Part shown: positions 40,997-51,530 of the stretch, piece by piece
Layout: every line of letters starts with the position of its first letter
How positions within the stretch are numbered: the stretch's first letter is position 1
Source of the DNA: an uncultured Candidatus Saccharibacteria bacterium
Lineage (GTDB): Bacteria > Patescibacteriota > Saccharimonadia > Saccharimonadales > CALMSM01
Assembly (NCBI GenBank): GCA_937872425.1
Contig: CALMSM010000149.1
Coordinates: 1-55,191, forward strand
Direction of reading: 5' to 3'
Length of the DNA stretch: 55,191 nucleotides
The notes under the pieces: model-generated
Told to the model about the DNA's origin: nothing
Seen by the model: the letters and a program-made list of their open reading frames with translations, nothing else
Databases searched by the model: none
Position numbers and translations under genes: made by a program

Positions 40997-43555
40997 CTAA
41001 GCCGCAACTTTTTGCAGATCCATTAGGTCAAACAGTGTAGGCGTTGTGCGTTCGGCTTCAGCCTCGCGCAGATATTTGCAGCTATTCTCCCAATAAAGCG
41101 AGTTAAGTTCAGTCCCTAGAGCAGAACGCCCCAACTTTAACGCCATATAACCGACCGTGCCAAGACCATGAAACGGGTCAAAAATCAACTCATCAGGGTT
41201 GCTATAACGCACAATCAAGCGCTCTACAATATCTAGCGGCAACGGGCATACGTGTTTCTCTACGCGTCGCCGGGCCTGATTCATGTTGAGCGTGCGCATA
41301 AACAGTACATCTGTCCAGACCGTTTCTTCATACGCATCTGGCGCTTGTGGTGGCATCAGCATGAATTTCGCCGGGAGCCGGTCCCCCATCGTCTCATTGA
41401 AGGCGACGTGCTGGTGATAGTCGTAGGGTTGACCTTTGCTCCAATCACGATACCAGTTGTATACCTGGCTACCGTCCATGTTGGCTAGCAGCGACGGATC
41501 ATCTGCCGGAGTAGGCGCTAGCGCTTTGCCATTGCTACGCCAGAGGCTGTGGGCGTCAATCTGCCATTGTCCGCGGCTGTAATCCTTTTTGTCTTTGCGC
41601 ACCGGTTCATCAGCATAACTGCGACTTTTGTCAGTCTGTGGTTTTCTAAAGAGCAACACCTTTTCACTCAGACCGACGCCCATTTTTGAGCCATCCTTGC
41701 AGCACTCAGACCAGCCCAGCCGGTTCGTGCTGTTATTCTCTCGCACTACGTCAGTGGGGATAAAAATTTCTCCATAACTGACAAAGCCGTGCTTCTTGAA
41801 CGCTCGCGCGCAATCATGCGTGAAGTAATCCACTTCCATCATGCCGTGTGGCGTCTGGTGGCCGTAGAGCAGACGGTCTTTGACGTGGATACAGGCCATG
41901 CGTCCTGGTTTCAACACACGTAGCAACTCAGGAATTAGGAAATCCATCTGCGTCCAAAAATCGTTATCGGCCTGGTTGTGGCCGAAGTCGTTGAGACTGG
42001 CGACGTATTCGTAATGGTTGCCGAACGGAATTGATGTAACAATTTCATCAACGCTATTGTCCGGCATGGCCATCGTTTCAATGACGCAATCGTTATTAAT
42101 GGCAGTCCAGTATTGCCCACGCTGCTCTTGGCGCGTGACGCCTAGCGTACGCTGCATCCCTGCGCTCAAAGCCTCGTTGGTCAGGCCAAACTCCTTGATA
42201 ATGGCTTTCATGCGAGCAACCATTTCGTTGTGCTGTTGCCATTTCTTAAGCAACACTTCAACAACGTGATCTTCGGCGTCCGTGTGGACAATATGAATAT
42301 TCACGGCCCTTGTTTGACCGTAACGTAAAAGCCGATGCACGGATTGAATAAAATCACGGAATTTATACCCAACTCCCAGGTAAATCGCGTTGTGGCAATA
42401 ACCCTGAAAATTGCAACCAGAACCACTCAGTTGAGGTTTTGTCGCTAAAATAGGCAGTTTTCCATGCTGAAAATCCAAGATAATCTGTTCGCGCTCATCA
42501 ATGTCTTGACTACCGTAAACTTCCTTCGCGAGAGGAATAGCCTTTTTGATGGCTTTGCGCTCATCTTCTAAATCGTGCCAAATCACCCAATGCTCCGTCT
42601 TGTCAGCCTCAACAATTTCAGCAGCCTTTCCTACTCGCATGGACATACTGTCCCGTTTTTCACGGATGGCTTGCGTTGTGCTCATAGAGGTGTCTTTGAG
42701 CAAAAAGGCTTGACCGTCTCTATTTGCAATATTCCATGCCTTTTCGTGATCAGCTGTAATGCGATGCCAGTGGATTTTTAGCTCCGGCATAATGTATCCG
42801 TCGTCGCTATAGCCCAAGTCACTGGGCTTATCCAAAAATAATGCCCAGCTTGCCACGGATAGCCAAAATTCATTTTCCATGTGCGGCAACAACTCTAAAT
42901 CGCCAGCCTCATCAGGGTTGCGACCAAACCACCGCGTCAAAGCTTGCCCGTCGTCCATTGCGCCAAGGAAATCAGCAAAATAAATCAGTTGGCGGTAATC
43001 GTTCGGAGCGGGCGTAGCCGTGGCAACCCAACGGTAGGGTATACCAGTCAGGATATAATTAAATTGTACCTGCGTCTCAGTTCCCAAATTCCCCAAAATT
43101 GCGCCTTCATCAAGGCAAACGCCACCTATCTCACTGAGCAGGAATTCAATGCTTAAATTTCCATCGCGAACGCGTTCATAGTTCGTGATAAGATATGGAG
43201 TGCCCGCCGATAATGCTTCGTTATCGTTTCGCACATAACGAAAATCGCACCCCATCGCCGGGCCATCTTCGTAAATGAATTGCTGCCGTACACCGAGCGG
43301 ACAAATAACCAACACGCTCTTGCCTGTAATTCTATGCACCTGACGCAATAACTCAATCTGCATTCTGGTCTTGCCCATACCGAAGCTGGCCGCAATCAGC
43401 GCTTTGCCGCGCTGCAACGCCCACATTACGGCATCGCGCTGATGCGGAAATAGCGACGGGTGCAAATCTTCAGGCTTGACCGTCAGTCCACCGCTAGTCG
43501 TTAGCGTGTTTTTGTTGCGTAAAAAATCAATGTACTGCTGCTGTTTGTTCATCAT
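40997..43555 (-). CDS. SNF2/DEAD-like helicase fused to an amino-type (N6-A/N4-C) DNA methyltransferase
   Basis: The N-terminal part has FGMGKT (motif I) and LDEGA (motif II). The C-terminal part has a TSIPFG catalytic-type motif and the SAM motif DPFHGLGTVG. Confidence 0.8.
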   Translation of the reverse strand: MMNKQQQYIDFLRNKNTLTTSGGLTVKPEDLHPSLFPHQRDAVMWALQRGKALIAASFGMGKTRMQIELLRQVHRITGKSVLVICPLGVRQQFIYEDGPAMGCDFRYVRNDNEALSAGTPYLITNYERVRDGNLSIEFLLSEIGGVCLDEGAILGNLGTETQVQFNYILTGIPYRWVATATPAPNDYRQLIYFADFLGAMDDGQALTRWFGRNPDEAGDLELLPHMENEFWLSVASWALFLDKPSDLGYSDDGYIMPELKIHWHRITADHEKAWNIANRDGQAFLLKDTSMSTTQAIREKRDSMSMRVGKAAEIVEADKTEHWVIWHDLEDERKAIKKAIPLAKEVYGSQDIDEREQIILDFQHGKLPILATKPQLSGSGCNFQGYCHNAIYLGVGYKFRDFIQSVHRLLRYGQTRAVNIHIVHTDAEDHVVEVLLKKWQQHNEMVARMKAIIKEFGLTNEALSAGMQRTLGVTRQEQRGQYWTAINNDCVIETMAMPDNSVDEIVTSIPFGNHYEYVASLNDFGHNQADNDFWTQMDFLIPELLRVLKPGRMACIHVKDRLLYGHQTPHGMMEVDYFTHDCARAFKKHGFVSYGEIFIPTDVVRENNSTNRLGWSECCKDGSKMGVGLSEKVLLFRKPQTDKSRSYADEPVRKDKKDYSRGQWQIDAHSLWRSNGKALAPTPADDPSLLANMDGSQVYNWYRDWSKGQPYDYHQHVAFNETMGDRLPAKFMLMPPQAPDAYEETVWTDVLFMRTLNMNQARRRVEKHVCPLPLDIVERLIVRYSNPDELIFDPFHGLGTVGYMALKLGRSALGTELNSLYWENSCKYLREAEAERTTPTLFDLMDLQKVAA

Positions 43556-47166: not shown

Positions 47167-47239
47167 GGCAGTGTAGCTCAAATGGATAGAGCACCAGATT
47201 GACTGGAGCGTGTTGGTTCGACTCCAACTATTGCCACCA
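47167..47239 (+). tRNA. tRNA-like gene with encoded CCA but a truncated anticodon arm (central triplet UUG)
   Basis: Has a 7-bp acceptor stem, U8, a GCTC/GAGC D stem with a GG loop, a GTTGG/CCAAC T stem with a TTCGACT loop, discriminator A and CCA. The anticodon arm is only 13 nt (CCAG-ATTGA-CTGG). Confidence 0.5.
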
Positions 47240-47318: not shown

Positions 47319-48227
47319 GTGAGGATGATCTATGCGTACAGCGACCATGTCAGTGGTGGTGGATTGGTAGATGTTGGCATGATCCAGGCCGACCATACGC
47401 CGACGTGGGCCGTAGAGTTTAATCAGTCCATCGCTGACGTGTACCGGCGCAACGTAGGTGATCACATCATTGTGGCCGACGTTGCCGATGTGGATTATGC
47501 CGCATTGCCGAGTGTGGACTGGCTGCACGCGTCGCCATCCTGTATTAATGCCAGCCATGCAAAAGTGGATAATGGTGAGGCTGGATCAGACATCCATAGC
47601 GCCCATGCAGTAGTACGTGCATTAAGAGCGCAGCGCCCCCGCTTTTTTACATTGGAGAATGTTTGGGAGTATCGCAATTTTCAGGCATTCAGATTGATTC
47701 TAAATGCCGTGGCCGATATGGGCTACATGTACGATTTCAATCATGTCAACATGGCAAATTATGGCGTGCCTCAAAATCGCTGGCGATTATTCCTGGTGGC
47801 ATCGAGGGGACTACTGCCGACAATCCCGAAATCAAAGCCGGTAGGCTGGTTGGCGGCAATTGAGGATTTGGCGCCTGGGCTGAAAGAATCCACGTTTCCG
47901 GCTTGGCAGATCGCGAAATTAGCGGGGAACAAAAAGCGAGAATTTGTGATCAACGGGGCTAATGCGAGTTCAAAGTTTTCATTCCCCATCGTTGCGCCTG
48001 GCGCGCCGATCTTCACAATCACGTCGAATTTCGGAAAAATTGCAACCAGGATGCAGATCGGTGGGAAGATACGCATGGCGTCGCCTCGATGCTATGCCCG
48101 CTGGCAGACCATGCCGGACAGTTACGCGCTACCGTCCGATAAAAAACTGGCCTGCACAATCATAGGTAATGGTGTTCCCTGCGAGTTTGTCCGTAGGGTA
48201 GGTGTAAGTTTTAACGAGGCAACATGA
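47319..48227 (+). CDS. DNA (cytosine-5)-methyltransferase
   Basis: SGGG (motif I-like), SPSC (motif IV, PC), TLENV (VI), QNRWR (VIII) and GNGVP (X). Confidence 0.85.
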   Translation: MRMIYAYSDHVSGGGLVDVGMIQADHTPTWAVEFNQSIADVYRRNVGDHIIVADVADVDYAALPSVDWLHASPSCINASHAKVDNGEAGSDIHSAHAVVRALRAQRPRFFTLENVWEYRNFQAFRLILNAVADMGYMYDFNHVNMANYGVPQNRWRLFLVASRGLLPTIPKSKPVGWLAAIEDLAPGLKESTFPAWQIAKLAGNKKREFVINGANASSKFSFPIVAPGAPIFTITSNFGKIATRMQIGGKIRMASPRCYARWQTMPDSYALPSDKKLACTIIGNGVPCEFVRRVGVSFNEAT

Positions 48228-48433: not shown

Positions 48434-49038
48434 ACTACGAGCGCATCATATCCGCACGCAAGAGCGATTCGCACACCAGGAAGGTGCATGTGGTTGCCAA
48501 GTGCGCACCACTGACGCTATGTGGAAAAAGCGCCGTTCAGCGCCACTGGCGAGCGGCAAATGATGCCGATAGCGTCCACTGCGTAAATTGCCAACGGTTG
48601 CTGAAGAAAATCACCGGTGGTACGCCTAGCGCACCGCTAAAGGTTGTCAGACTTGAGTTGACACCGACAGAATACAAAATGATTGCGCTGATGAAAACGG
48701 GTGTACCCACGTTTGAAATTGATAAAATAATGGGTTGGAAGCGCGGGTGTACATCCTTCCTGCGCACCATCGGCAAGCGAAACGGCATTACAACGCCAGA
48801 ATTACGAACCATGCTGGCTTATATCCAACCCATAGACCCGGCATCAAAAAAAGGTTACAAGCCAACTGTATGGCGTTACGCTGGGCGCTATGCCGCGGTG
48901 CTTAGCCGTAAGGAGAATGGTAAGCGCAAAATAAAACAAATAGGCATGTATGACACCGAGGCTGAAGCAATAGAGGCGGGACGTAAAGCCAAGCGTGACG
49001 GTATTTACGTACCTGGACAGGGGCTTGTGAAATTTTAA
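48430..49038 (+). CDS. DNA-binding protein with LuxR/sigma-r4-like HTH and C-terminal AP2-like domain
   Basis: LTPTEYKMIALMKTGVPTFEIDKIMG, then WRYAGRYAAVL...KIKQIGMYDTEAEAIEAGRKA. Confidence 0.5.
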   Translation: MNYERIISARKSDSHTRKVHVVAKCAPLTLCGKSAVQRHWRAANDADSVHCVNCQRLLKKITGGTPSAPLKVVRLELTPTEYKMIALMKTGVPTFEIDKIMGWKRGCTSFLRTIGKRNGITTPELRTMLAYIQPIDPASKKGYKPTVWRYAGRYAAVLSRKENGKRKIKQIGMYDTEAEAIEAGRKAKRDGIYVPGQGLVKF

Positions 49039-49143
49039 AATGCTCAATTTAAATAACTATTGCATCACCACTAGCCAGACCACAAGCCATCGCAATGGCC
49101 TTCGTGACCTCTGCGTGTTGGAGAAGTTTTGCGGGAAGAAACC

Positions 49144-49503
49144 ATGAATACACCACCAACCATCACAGTTGCCTGGTCACCAGACGATAACTGTTACATT
49201 GCCAGGCACAACGAACACCGCTACCTATCAGGGCATGGCGACACGCCACTGAAAGCACACGGCGAGTTGACGATAGCGATTAGGGCGAGCGACAAGATAA
49301 AGGCTATGAGCAACGTCAAACACACCGTTACCTGTCTGCATCTAAATAGTGACATCTACGTCGTTGGCTATCTCATCAGCAGCGATAGTGACAGGGTGAT
49401 TATAGCTCAAACGGTAGACAGAGATGGCAAGACGACGGACGATGTAGTAATACCACGCCAGGCCATCGTCCAGCGCTATGACATTCCCGTTACGTGGTGG
49501 TAA
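49144..49503 (+). CDS. Hypothetical protein (119 aa from ATG 49144)
   Basis: The listed ORF starts at TTG 49129; the ATG has a GGGAAG RBS-like stretch upstream. Confidence 0.4.
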   Translation: MNTPPTITVAWSPDDNCYIARHNEHRYLSGHGDTPLKAHGELTIAIRASDKIKAMSNVKHTVTCLHLNSDIYVVGYLISSDSDRVIIAQTVDRDGKTTDDVVIPRQAIVQRYDIPVTWW

Positions 49504-49507
49504 TCGT

Positions 49508-49579
49508 GCCGGGTGTGGTGTAACGACAGCACGCACGGCGCATAGTCGTGAGGATGGGGTTTGACTCCCTCGCCCGGCA
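49508..49579 (+). tRNA. tRNA-like gene, anticodon CAU, non-canonical (G33, U at T-loop position 56, 3-nt acceptor-D connector, no CCA)
   Basis: Acceptor GCCGGGT/GCCCGGC, D stem GTGT/GCAC, anticodon stem CACGG/TCGTG with loop CGCATAG, and T stem (T)GGGG/CCCT(C) with loop TTTGACT. Confidence 0.4.
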
Positions 49580-49617
49580 ATATTAGTAATGTGCCTTCTC
49601 GCGTAGAATCATTTTTG

Positions 49618-49821
49618 TCAAGCCGGTGGATTTTGCCGGTTGAAATTTACAGTTTGGGGAGTATTGTAATCCTTTGCCCGTTGAAGGATGACGGCGATCT
49701 GAGAGTTCAACGATCTTTGTTCTCTCTGAGCTTGCTCTCTCAGCCATTCATGCAATGTGGCATCTAGCCTAAGCGTAATCGGGATGGTATTGATAGTATA
49801 GGGTGTTCTCTCTCGTTTCAT
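49618..49821 (-). CDS. Arc/CopG-type ribbon-helix-helix protein (67 aa; C-terminal part of listed 178-aa ORF)
   Basis: MKRERTPYTINTIPITLRLDATLHEWLREQAQREQRSLNSQIAVILQRA. The upstream part of the listed ORF overlaps the non-coding unit. Confidence 0.6.
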   Translation of the reverse strand: MKRERTPYTINTIPITLRLDATLHEWLREQAQREQRSLNSQIAVILQRAKDYNTPQTVNFNRQNPPA

Positions 49822-49873
49822 GGGTTTGCTCCAGATCGTATATGAATCGTACGGAAACTCTAACAAAACTATA

Positions 49874-49902
49874 TTGACACCATAGCGCAACCGTGCTATA
49901 CT
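49874..49902 (+). promoter_or_regulatory. Consensus promoter TTGACA-17-TATACT driving a non-coding unit
   Basis: TTGACA at 49874-49879 and TATACT at 49897-49902. Confidence 0.7.
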
Positions 49903-49908
49903 GTTTTC

Positions 49909-50413
49909 AGTTCTTAATGGTTGCAATAATACACTACATAGAAGCTGTAACGCAAACCTTGAGGACTCAGTAATTAAAAATGCATACTGCCTGATTCGTG
50001 ACGAACGTGACACACTCATGAGACGTTGCTGAACAGCTAGACGGTCAGGCGGTAGCAGAAATGACTTTTGGCAGTACAGCGACCCGAAACGGTGCAGGAT
50101 CGCTACCGAATCAAAAATCGGAGAACTGGCTGTACGCGATGGCACTGCCGCCAACTGTCAATAAATGCTACTTTCTGATACGTGACGACGTTGGGGCGTG
50201 ATCAGCCCGCAGTCCCGTACTTTGGACGGTCAGGCGGTAGCAGAATAGAATCGCTAGAACTGTGGTAGGGACTGGCGAGGATTAACAATTAGTAGGTATG
50301 CATACAGTAATACGAATCCCGTCTTACTGGGGGCGAATCAAGCACAGCTACCACCTGTGAATGCCTACTAAATCTTGATTCGCAGTCCCCAGTAGTACGG
50401 GATTTATTTTTTT
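49909..50413 (+). ncRNA. Candidate roughly 500-nt structured non-coding RNA of unknown class
   Basis: Bounded by a consensus promoter and a very long terminator hairpin, with no RBS-supported ORF. It contains an internal duplicated module with conserved boxes at 49991-50004 / 50175-50188 and 50040-50060 / 50225-50245. Confidence 0.5.
50315..50413 (+). terminator. Very long interrupted hairpin (about 28 bp) followed by TTTATTTTTTT
   Basis: 50315-50342 pairs with 50374-50404, with one 3-nt bulge and one mismatch. Confidence 0.75.
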
Positions 50414-50457
50414 GGAGGTGAAATTGCATAGATTTTGGCGGATGGCTTGCTGGGAAG

Positions 50458-50529
50458 TGGCGTAAAGTTTGATGGTAAAACGCTGGCCTTGCACGCCAGA
50501 GACCGCTGGTTCGATTCCAGCTACGCTCC
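50458..50529 (+). tRNA. tRNA-Ala(UGC)-like gene with canonical core but A8 and a mismatched first acceptor pair
   Basis: D stem GTTT/AAAC with a GG loop, anticodon stem CTGGC/GCCAG with loop CTTGCAC, variable loop AGACC, and T stem GCTGG/CCAGC with loop TTCGATT. The acceptor TGGCGTA/TACGCTC pairs at 6 of 7 positions. Confidence 0.55.
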
Positions 50530-50721
50530 AGAGGGGCGCAATCCCCTAGCCGAAAAACCCGCCAGTTTAGTTTTACCCTAGCCTCTATATCTTTCGATGT
50601 AGGGGACGGGGTGCAACTAAGGCACCAAAAAAACCCGAAAGATTCCCACAGAATCAATCGGGCCAACCAAATGTTTTGTTCGAGTGCAGTATACAAGATA
50701 TTCAAGAAAGAGGATAATTTT

Positions 50722-51405
50722 ATGATTCATGATCCGTGGGCCTCAGCAGTAGAAGACGCCGAACGCGGCGACTATTTATGGGGACAAATTCAAATCGATG
50801 TGGGTTTCGTCATTCTGAAAAAAGGTCAACCCAAACATACGTGGATTGAAGGAGACGATCCCAAAGATCGCAGCACAGAGATCAGCTTTACGCTGAATCC
50901 CATTGGCGAAATGGGCTTGACCAAGCTGATTCAGCGCTCCGTGCTCAGTGATGCGCGTGGCGAATGGGGCCGCATTGTATGGCCGTCATTGCGCGATGGG
51001 TGTGGGCTGAAAGAACTTCGACCGTTAGAGGGGAAGTTTGTCAAAATTGAGACTGTTAAAAATGGTCGAAAATGGACAAATAAAGATGGCGACCTGATGG
51101 AAGGAACAACCTTCAAATTTCATGCCATTTTTGATAGCGAAAAAACTTGCGTTGACAACTATCTCGGTGAGGGCAATGTATCAAAAGCCACAGTGCCAGA
51201 AGGCAATCCCGCTATGACGGTTGACATGGATACACCCGTGGTTAACCAGGAGCGCGAAACGGCATTAGCATTTTTGCCCGCTCTGGTCAAACAGACCAAA
51301 GGCAATATCGACATGCTGAAAACCATGCTTGACGGGATGCCGATGATCTCGAAATTCTTCACCGTGGATTCACCTGAAGTCAAACAATTGATTGGAGCAA
51401 CATAA
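50722..51405 (+). CDS. Hypothetical protein heading the recombination module (227 aa; internal start)
   Basis: AGAGGA RBS ahead of MIHDPWAS. The upstream part of the listed ORF overlaps the tRNA-like region. Confidence 0.45.
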   Translation: MIHDPWASAVEDAERGDYLWGQIQIDVGFVILKKGQPKHTWIEGDDPKDRSTEISFTLNPIGEMGLTKLIQRSVLSDARGEWGRIVWPSLRDGCGLKELRPLEGKFVKIETVKNGRKWTNKDGDLMEGTTFKFHAIFDSEKTCVDNYLGEGNVSKATVPEGNPAMTVDMDTPVVNQERETALAFLPALVKQTKGNIDMLKTMLDGMPMISKFFTVDSPEVKQLIGAT

Positions 51406-51530
51406 TGGACATTCAATTTATTTTGGCGTTAGTCCCTGATTCAGAATTCTTCAACTCCTACGCAGAACTCTACACAGCCGCACTCCTCGCAGATGAAGAA
51501 GCCGCCCAACAATTTTTGTTCAGTCTGTAA
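51405..51530 (+). CDS. 41-aa micro-ORF, not in ORF track
   Basis: TAATG overlap with the upstream gene. The peptide is MDIQFILALVPDSEFFNSYAELYTAALLADEEAAQQFLFSL. Confidence 0.3.
   Translation: MDIQFILALVPDSEFFNSYAELYTAALLADEEAAQQFLFSL

Follow-up and report, generated by a model that had tools for sequence, protein, structure and literature searches.

What is encoded between positions 49874 and 50413 of a 55,191-nt contig (CALMSM010000149.1, assembly GCA_937872425.1) from an uncultured Candidatus Saccharibacteria bacterium, where a consensus-like promoter opens onto roughly 500 nt without a credible open reading frame (ORF) and a long hairpin closes them off? An earlier note on this contig, the whole of which is here called the window, had read the interval as a promoter-to-terminator unit for a large structured noncoding RNA (ncRNA), had thought of the phage RNAs GOLLD and ROOL, and had kept an iteron-type replication origin as the main alternative. 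The unit itself stands, with structure and compensatory changes in its favor; the link to GOLLD and ROOL does not. The feature is real and non-random, and it belongs to a phage whose region is identical in an ENA contig (67.9 kb) and in a Logan contig. Judged from sequence and by analogy with known phage systems, it has about an even chance of being a leader RNA of ~505 nt that, with its terminator, would form a checkpoint ahead of an operon for an SSB-like protein, recombination, and replication. As to kind, the unit is best read as a new, lineage-restricted, and previously undescribed family of structured phage leader RNAs with a predicted pseudoknotted long terminator, within which the window copy stands out by its two long-stem domains and its acquired tRNAs.

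The unit is composed of the following parts.

49874..49902, + strand: sigma-70-type promoter, with −35 TTGACA (49874-49879), 17-nt spacer, and −10 TATACT (49897-49902)
49909..49967, + strand: predicted 5′ stem-loop of the transcript, found in both minimum free energy (MFE) and centroid structures
49981..50057, + strand: predicted long-stem domain 1, box 1 (49985-50004) pairing with box 2 (50040-50060), z = −3.1
50058..50165, + strand: inter-domain segment, present in the window lineage only and without counterpart in relatives
50166..50242, + strand: predicted long-stem domain 2, box 1′ (50169-50188) pairing with box 2 (50225-50245)
50262..50268, + strand: linker segment X1 (GUGGUAG), complementary over 7 bp to loop segment Y1 (50348-50354, CUACCAC)
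50287..50302, + strand: linker segment X2 (UUAGUAGGUAUGCA), complementary to loop segment Y2 (50358-50372)
50314..50405, + strand: long interrupted terminator hairpin, three stem segments totaling ~29 bp and a 31-nt loop (50343-50373)
50404..50413, + strand: U-run of the predicted intrinsic terminator, TTTATTTTTTT, ending at 50413

Both ends of the unit are as the earlier note had described them. The promoter carries, in addition, an extended −10 (TG at 49894-49895), scores 11/12, and is the top promoter-like + strand site within 48500-51500 in a promoter scan, with a predicted transcription start at ~49909. The closing hairpin, previously estimated at ~28 bp, has an MFE of −45.9 kcal/mol and stands directly before a U-run (UUUAUUUUUUU), as expected of an intrinsic terminator; the tail AUUUUUAUUUU is conserved across the other units. 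Its stem length and loop size are atypical, and it was therefore missed by a simple terminator scan. The + strand of the whole unit folds with an MFE of −175.5 kcal/mol (z = −5.6).

Related loci were gathered through homologues of the 227-aa protein encoded by the first gene of the downstream operon, and nine units were examined: that of the window and those of the loci L018, L028, L023, L025, L055, L056, L057, and L058. Every one of the nine has the same layout: behind a small leftward regulator come a −35 resembling TTGACA, a spacer of 17-18 nt, and a −10 hexamer, then an ORF-free stretch of 190-505 nt that leads to a hairpin (stem 23-32 bp, loop 23-44 nt) and a U-run; all nine lead into rightward genes reaching the SSB-like gene, the first downstream gene being variable. 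Across these nine uncultivated phages the unit sequences are mostly unalignable, and the leftward regulators (ribbon-helix-helix [RHH], Arc-like, or helix-turn-helix [HTH]) vary in sequence and fold while keeping the same place in 9/9 units. Near-consensus promoters equivalent to that of the window precede the units of L018, L028, L025, L055, and L056-L058.

The closest relatives, L018 (89% protein identity) and L028 (84%), have one module each with the same boxes, a near-consensus promoter, and a homologous long terminator hairpin; nearly all else in them is unalignable to the window. L023 and L025 (75-76%) have units 63% identical to each other, and L055, L056, L057, and L058 (50-54%) have units unrelated in sequence, the ORF-free stretch being 190-300 nt in these six loci. 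Phages with 75-89% identity in the neighboring genes have exchanged the cassette, together with its divergent regulator, as one block. All nine units fold far better than shuffled sequence (z between −4 and −11), and so does the − strand.

What these units have in common is the 3′ domain, which, on the complementarities described here, is the conserved core and a pseudoknotted terminator. In the window, the hairpin loop carries both Y1 and Y2, and the X2:Y2 helix comprises 15 pairs with 1 mismatch (p < 0.001, contiguous-helix statistic). Within the 70 nt upstream, the longest Watson-Crick match to the loop reaches 7-11 bp in 7/8 independent units, and the eight units combined give a Fisher p of 2.4e-7; controls with the 150 nt downstream and with the 71-140 nt upstream gave p = 0.997 and p = 0.6, respectively. 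Contiguous-helix statistics were used in place of duplex energy, with which, free interior loops being allowed, the pseudoknot test returned p = 0.07-0.5. The loop-linker pairings of the more distant relatives are as follows.

L023: 11 Watson-Crick pairs
L025: 9 Watson-Crick pairs
L055, L056, and L057: 8 each
L058: 7, plus two further 6-bp helices

The geometry of these helices is also shared. The proximal helix lies 17-18 nt ahead of the 5′ arm of the hairpin in six units, and its loop side is 0-2 nt from the 3′ arm in 5/6 of them (8 nt in L058). In three units a second helix, 44-47 nt upstream, uses the 5′ part of the loop and crosses the first. The spacer, read directly from the sequences, is A/U-rich with a recurring AAUA(C/G) motif.

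In the homologous loci, compensatory changes are seen in both the terminator stem and the loop-linker helix. Between L023 and L025, 5/11 loop-linker pairs are altered on both sides and 95% of cells remain paired, and none of the slid registers of this helix shows such compensation. Between the window and L018/L028, the terminator stem has compensatory changes in five pairs of its outer and middle segments and in four further pairs of its inner segment.

The most eye-catching part of the window copy, its duplicated module, is less widely shared. Two modules ~185 nt apart with a common 14-nt and a common 21-nt box had been claimed, and both are present, the 14-nt box being part of a 20-nt repeat (49985 and 50169, 85% identity). 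The 21-nt box, GACGGTCAGGCGGTAGCAGAA, has exactly two copies in the window, at 50040 and 50225, where the chance expectation is none, even with 3 mismatches allowed. The hairpins said to lie between the boxes with their pairing kept are instead non-homologous inserts (36 and 37 nt) with no covarying helix. The relation that had been overlooked is the base-pairing of box 1 with box 2, by which each module is predicted to form a long-stem domain: GCUACUGCCUGAU(A)CGU pairs with ACGGUCAGGCGGUAGC over ~14-16 bp, some of them G.U, and with a single bulge. Each module is thus read as a long stem closing a variable apical region (36 nt in domain 1, 37 nt in domain 2), and the two apical regions are unrelated to each other. 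In addition, Y1 of the window (GCUACCACCUG) agrees with box 1 at 10/12 positions, so that it can pair with box 2 too, and a toggle between module and pseudoknot is possible in this copy.

Single-copy homologues of domain 2 occur in L018 (2518-2597), L028 (1211-1312), and a further locus, L039; between relatives the boxes are exact over 21-24 nt, and their flanks have diverged past alignment. Long-stem domains of 14-20 bp are found in L055, L056, and L058 as well, not in L057, and the number of modules per unit is 0, 1, or 2. No relative was found among GenBank phages by DNA or protein searches, exact and gapped motif scans of IMG/VR returned nothing, and the box sequences do not occur in the literature. 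A motif scan of JGI metagenomes gave 21 matches, 20 of them due to chance and without P1 context; the only real one is L039 (OFRG01005358.1, reverse strand, last ~260 nt), in which an L018-type promoter, 5′ leader, and module are joined to a window-type 3′ domain, with the junction exactly at box 2. This suggests that L039 is a hybrid produced by recombination at the conserved box. As far as these loci tell, the module duplication is specific to the window lineage, and module and 3′ domain are separable.

The surroundings of the unit contain the following features.

49618..49821, − strand: gene for a 67-aa RHH regulator, divergent from the promoter (ORF list, Pfam, and PHROG)
50414..50565, + strand: window-specific insertion of 152 nt between the U-run and the conserved leader, outside the conserved unit
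50566..50721, + strand: highly conserved leader before the first operon gene, with no good sigma-70 promoter
50722..51405, + strand: first operon gene, encoding the 227-aa, possibly SSB-like protein

The evidence for a role of the unit in expression of the downstream genes comes from what lies behind the U-run. In L028, L055, L056, L057, and L058, a start codon with a good ribosome-binding site (RBS) follows the U-run by 11-42 nt; since a separate sigma-70 promoter cannot fit into such a gap, the next gene in these five would be expressed only by read-through. In the window, L018, and L025, the promoter scans revealed no convincing + strand promoter in the 150-310 nt stretch between terminator and gene; L023 shares the same conserved leader as these three. 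In the distant loci L003 and L005 (46-47% identity), the operon is headed directly by a TTGACA-17-TAATAT promoter and no leader, which fits the notion of the unit as a regulatory insert; this promoter is situated ~95 nt before the gene.

On sequence grounds, transcription, termination, and regulated read-through would proceed as follows. The near-consensus promoter, probably under control of the RHH protein, would fire into the 5′ hairpin, from which the polymerase would pass through the two copies of the long-stem domain to the 3′ domain, with its 29-bp interrupted hairpin and U-run and a loop that would pair with the two upstream linker segments to form a pseudoknot. Most transcripts would stop at the U-run, releasing an abundant RNA of ~0.5 kb, and expression of the downstream genes would depend on read-through by the polymerase. 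The unit would then be a termination checkpoint, working by attenuation or antitermination, the efficiency of which may be set or modulated by the loop-linker pairing and the long-stem domains.

Several points weigh against a checkpoint of this kind. No antiterminator or other read-through factor was identified among the neighboring proteins, and the terminator looks strong, so the RNA could be free-standing and the operon transcribed from further upstream. Likewise, the conserved leader at 50566-50721 could contain a promoter for a non-sigma-70 factor or for an activator. With respect to structure, the loop-linker pairing of L018 and L028 is 6 bp only and not significant, and no covariation is seen in the long-stem boxes, of which only four copies, nearly identical, are known, the box motif being confined to a tiny clade. 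Moreover, the + strand is clearly more stable than the − strand only in the window, L018, and L028, and as the folding asymmetry is limited to these three units, the strand assignment rests mainly on the promoter and the one-directional U-run.

The closest functional parallel is the PR′-tR′ arrangement of lambdoid phages, in which an always-active promoter is followed by immediate termination, giving an abundant short RNA unless antitermination occurs (PMC7547250). The unit resembles this arrangement (lambda 6S RNA; StxS) in its strong promoter, prompt predicted intrinsic terminator, and an apparently read-through-dependent operon, which by the scans and by the five short-gap relatives has no promoter of its own. 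The differences are that there is no sequence or Rfam relation, that the operon here is for recombination and replication instead of late genes, that the neighbor is a divergent RHH/HTH regulator and no Q-like gene was found, and that the leader is far longer and more structured, with its long-stem domains and a 29-bp hairpin with loop-linker pairing. In fact, Pfam, PHROG, and PDB searches of the neighboring proteins gave no match to a Q antiterminator family.

A second parallel is provided by RNA-based immunity. The c4 RNA of phages P1 and P7, with the a2/b2 target sites of P1, is one example, and the CI RNA of P4 (seqA/seqC) is another. The P4 immunity leader precedes a primase-helicase operon and works by premature termination (PMC3632133; references in PMC3177188), the termination at timm being Rho-dependent (PMC3177188). 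Here, too, a leader with predicted early termination precedes a primase-helicase operon, a hairpin loop is complementary to upstream sites in the same transcript, and the pairing sequences diversify. In contrast to P4 and c4, the unit matches neither the C4 nor the IsrK model, no downstream target copy is present, termination is predicted to be intrinsic, and size and fold differ. Without a match to any model and with no Q-like gene, the unit does not qualify as a member of the PR′-tR′ or P4 families; the resemblance, itself drawn by analogy, is functional only and not homologous.

Lambda nut and HK022 put sites are structured early-leader RNA elements with conserved stems that act on the transcribing polymerase. 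The unit is like them in consisting of structured RNA elements in an early phage leader, and differs in that no boxA/boxB or put consensus was seen in it, its elements are much larger, and no N-like protein was identified.

An extension of the checkpoint reading, tentative and rather unlikely, would make the units an undescribed class of phage riboregulators. Such a class would be defined by a long terminator whose loop is tied to the linker by 1-3 helices, fast-diversifying yet compensated, with 0-2 long-stem domains in front; the pairs and the swapped repressor together would constitute a specificity or immunity determinant, deciding whether the replication module of the phage itself or of a superinfecting one is transcribed.

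Of the explanations that do without a checkpoint, the one that survives best, unlikely as it is, holds that the unit is a free-standing trans-acting ncRNA, which would either regulate mRNAs of host or phage by base-pairing or serve as a sponge or decoy for a protein (for example, in anti-defense). The terminator would then do no more than close the gene, and the placement of the unit ahead of the operon would be fortuitous. Promoter and terminator are both strong, the predicted RNA is very stable and structured, the boxes are kept exactly amid diverged flanks, suggesting selection for a protein or RNA partner, and terminated leaders can gain trans functions, as did StxS (PMC7547250). However, a k-mer search found no complementarity of at least 14 nt to the unit elsewhere in the 55-kb window, and beyond short motifs there is no conservation between unit types, contrary to what a common host target would predict. 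A comparison of the whole RNA with all translation start regions by RNAduplex was uninformative, long queries giving large spurious duplexes. The operon-head position is kept in 9/9 units while the first downstream gene varies, and five units leave no room for a promoter of the downstream gene itself; position and promoter logic thus favor action in cis over a free-standing trans RNA.

Quite unlikely, too, is an RNA immunity of the P4/P1 type in the strict sense, in which the leader loop would pair in trans with X1/X2 on nascent leaders of the same or a superinfecting phage, thereby enforcing termination, and immunity types would differ by their rapidly diversified pairing sequences. Antisense RNAs (seqA, CI RNA) act in this manner in P4-like elements (PMC3632133 and references therein). 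The complementarity between loop and upstream sites does diversify by compensatory change between close relatives, X1:Y1 and X2:Y2 cross, which is awkward in cis and natural in trans, block-wise swapping of a cassette that includes the divergent regulator is typical of immunity regions, and, as in P4, the last place in the downstream operon is taken by a primase-helicase. Yet of the two-sided loop complementarity of C4/P4 systems only the upstream side is present (p = 2.4e-7; downstream p = 0.997), and there is no downstream target copy, unlike a2/b2 of P1 or seqC of P4. Neither the window nor the eight relatives match C4 (RF01695) or IsrK in Rfam, a spacing fixed at 17-18 nt, with the helix abutting the 3′ arm, is suggestive of a tertiary fold in cis, and the phage already has a CI/Cro-like HTH pair at ~46.2-47 kb.

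An element acting at the DNA level is very improbable. It would be a replication origin whose iterons or inverted repeats are bound by a phage initiator, perhaps activated by transcription; speaking for it, the 21-bp box has two identical copies, and long inverted repeats lie shortly before the replication module. The module itself is where the earlier note had placed it, as the downstream genes confirm. RNA type and primase-helicase type go together in the few available cases, a VapE-like primase-helicase accompanying the window type and D5_N/DUF5906 accompanying the L023 type; in 6/9 units, folding of the − strand roughly equals or surpasses that of the + strand; and the same slot in L003 and L005 (2200-2900 and 2250-2900, respectively) is an origin-like region with a very AT-rich stretch and at least 6 AGTTATCC (DnaA-box-like) repeats. 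This slot also contains CGAAC-N4-GTTCG palindromes resembling Gram-positive-type LexA boxes. The window, however, has two boxes only, 185 bp apart and not in a phased array (for which three or more are expected), and each is one strand of an RNA-type stem, pairing with an inverted partner in a way that includes G.U pairs, which in DNA would be mispaired. An AT-rich unwinding element is lacking (GC 0.45-0.53), relatives keep one box pair or none, the divergent regulators differ among phages that have the boxes in common, and in 9/9 cases the unit lies between a consensus promoter and a one-directional U-run; crossing loop-linker complementarity would be meaningless for duplex DNA.

That the unit encodes a small protein is scarcely credible. 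A 46-aa ATG ORF is present at 50061-50201; it lacks a Shine-Dalgarno sequence, and L018 and L028 do not have it, a TAG or TAA standing immediately after box 2 there. On the + strand the unit contains ORFs of 20-46 aa, none of which, as the earlier note had it, has an RBS; none is conserved either. Box 1 has stop codons in 2/3 frames, and box 2 has a stop in one frame, with a second frame closed by the directly following TAG (module 2, L018); the boxes are 36, 37, 41, or 63 nt apart, so no reading frame is kept.

Membership in a known class of large ornate RNA (GOLLD, ROOL, HEARO, raiA) or another Rfam family, suggested by a size of ~0.5 kb, a phage genome, and the tRNA neighbors in the window, is effectively excluded as far as a covariance-model search can tell: a cmscan of 49300-50800 with Rfam 15 (E ≤ 10) returned tRNA and sub-threshold noise, including spurious miRNA-precursor and CopA matches inside the unit far under gathering scores, the whole window gave tRNAs only at the gathering threshold, the eight relatives gave no family match (E ≤ 1), the tRNA adjacency is incidental and peculiar to the window, relatives are as short as 189 nt, and unit types share no sequence core beyond the short AAUA(C/G) spacer motif. 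Other candidates were also rejected. A type III toxin-antitoxin RNA would have tandem repeats, which these are not, and the downstream gene is widespread without the RNA; hammerheads, other small ribozymes, and riboswitches are disfavored by a conserved stem with a variable junction, the opposite of an aptamer; a REPIN or MITE would have further copies in metagenomes, of which there are none; and no convincing likeness to a CRISPR repeat was seen by eye.

If the checkpoint is real, promoter-proximal termination controls the recombination and replication module in a clade of uncultivated phages, a logic so far known from lambda late genes and P4 immunity. The predicted architecture, with a terminator stem of ~29 bp and a loop paired to the linker at a fixed offset of 17-18 nt, has no described relative, and since the pairing sequences turn over fast while staying compensated, RNA-encoded immunity or specificity could be tested on them directly. 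Very strong, orthogonal terminators might also be drawn from the units. For genome scans there is a caution, in that the duplicated module and the flanking tRNAs, which catch the eye, are lineage-specific, and the conserved core is the 3′ domain.

The divergent RHH gene adjoining the unit was likewise found where it had been reported, with family matches below cut-offs. Its product matches FitA-like_RHH in Pfam (E 2.3e-5), as well as ParD-like and Arc, and an Arc-like repressor in PHROG (E 3.4e-5), and it probably controls the leader promoter. An ATAGC-N8-GCTAT inverted repeat inside the promoter spacer (49882-49899) is a candidate operator for it, as is, for the divergent regulator of L025, a 9-bp palindrome (AGTGGATGT/ACATCCACT) over the −35. 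In L018 (2384-2410), L028 (1064-1095), L003 (2200-2230), and L005 (2240-2262), the leftward regulator genes, unrelated as the regulators are (RHH or HTH), share a conserved 5′ untranslated region (UTR), which reads CCTTAAATTTTTGCAC on the + strand.

Two tRNA-like genes had been said to flank the unit. Both are present; their adjacency is not kept in relatives, since no tRNA stands beside the unit in L018, L023, L025, or L028 and Rfam matched no tRNA there or in L055-L058. The downstream gene, tRNA-Ala(TGC) at 50457-50530, was called by ARAGORN and Rfam and lies within the 152-nt insertion, which is missing from L018, where the U-run runs straight into the conserved leader. The upstream gene, tRNA-Met(CAT) at 49508-49579, was called by ARAGORN only, Rfam giving 17 bits against the tRNA-Sec model alone. 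The tRNA finders also disagree at 47167-47236, where Rfam calls a tRNA (48.9 bits) and ARAGORN none.

The leader at 50566-50721 is 86-93% identical in L018, L028, L023, and L025, exceeding the conservation of the coding sequences (proteins 75-89%), and may act as a protein-binding site or as another regulatory RNA. Two hairpins lie in it, first a small one, GGUGC-AAnUAAG-GCNYC, in which pairing is kept via wobble changes, and then CCCGA...UCGGG. Homology of the 5′ UTR of L003 and L005 to this leader was considered and rejected, the alignment being unconvincing. The 227-aa protein encoded behind it has 76 homologues and belongs to no Pfam or PHROG family; a profile of 39 homologues gave weak matches to bacterial SSB OB-folds in the PDB (E 0.17-0.68). 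Its gene is also widespread without an adjoining RNA unit. Further downstream are genes for ERCC4, RecT-like (weak), DnaJ, VWA, and primase-polymerase proteins. On the upstream side, two proteins of 202 and 124 aa had no match in Pfam, PHROG, or PDB. The phage additionally encodes an 852-aa fusion of an SNF2/DEAD helicase with an N6/N4 methylase (40997-43555, − strand) and, in its early region, a separate C-5 cytosine methylase (47319-48227, + strand).

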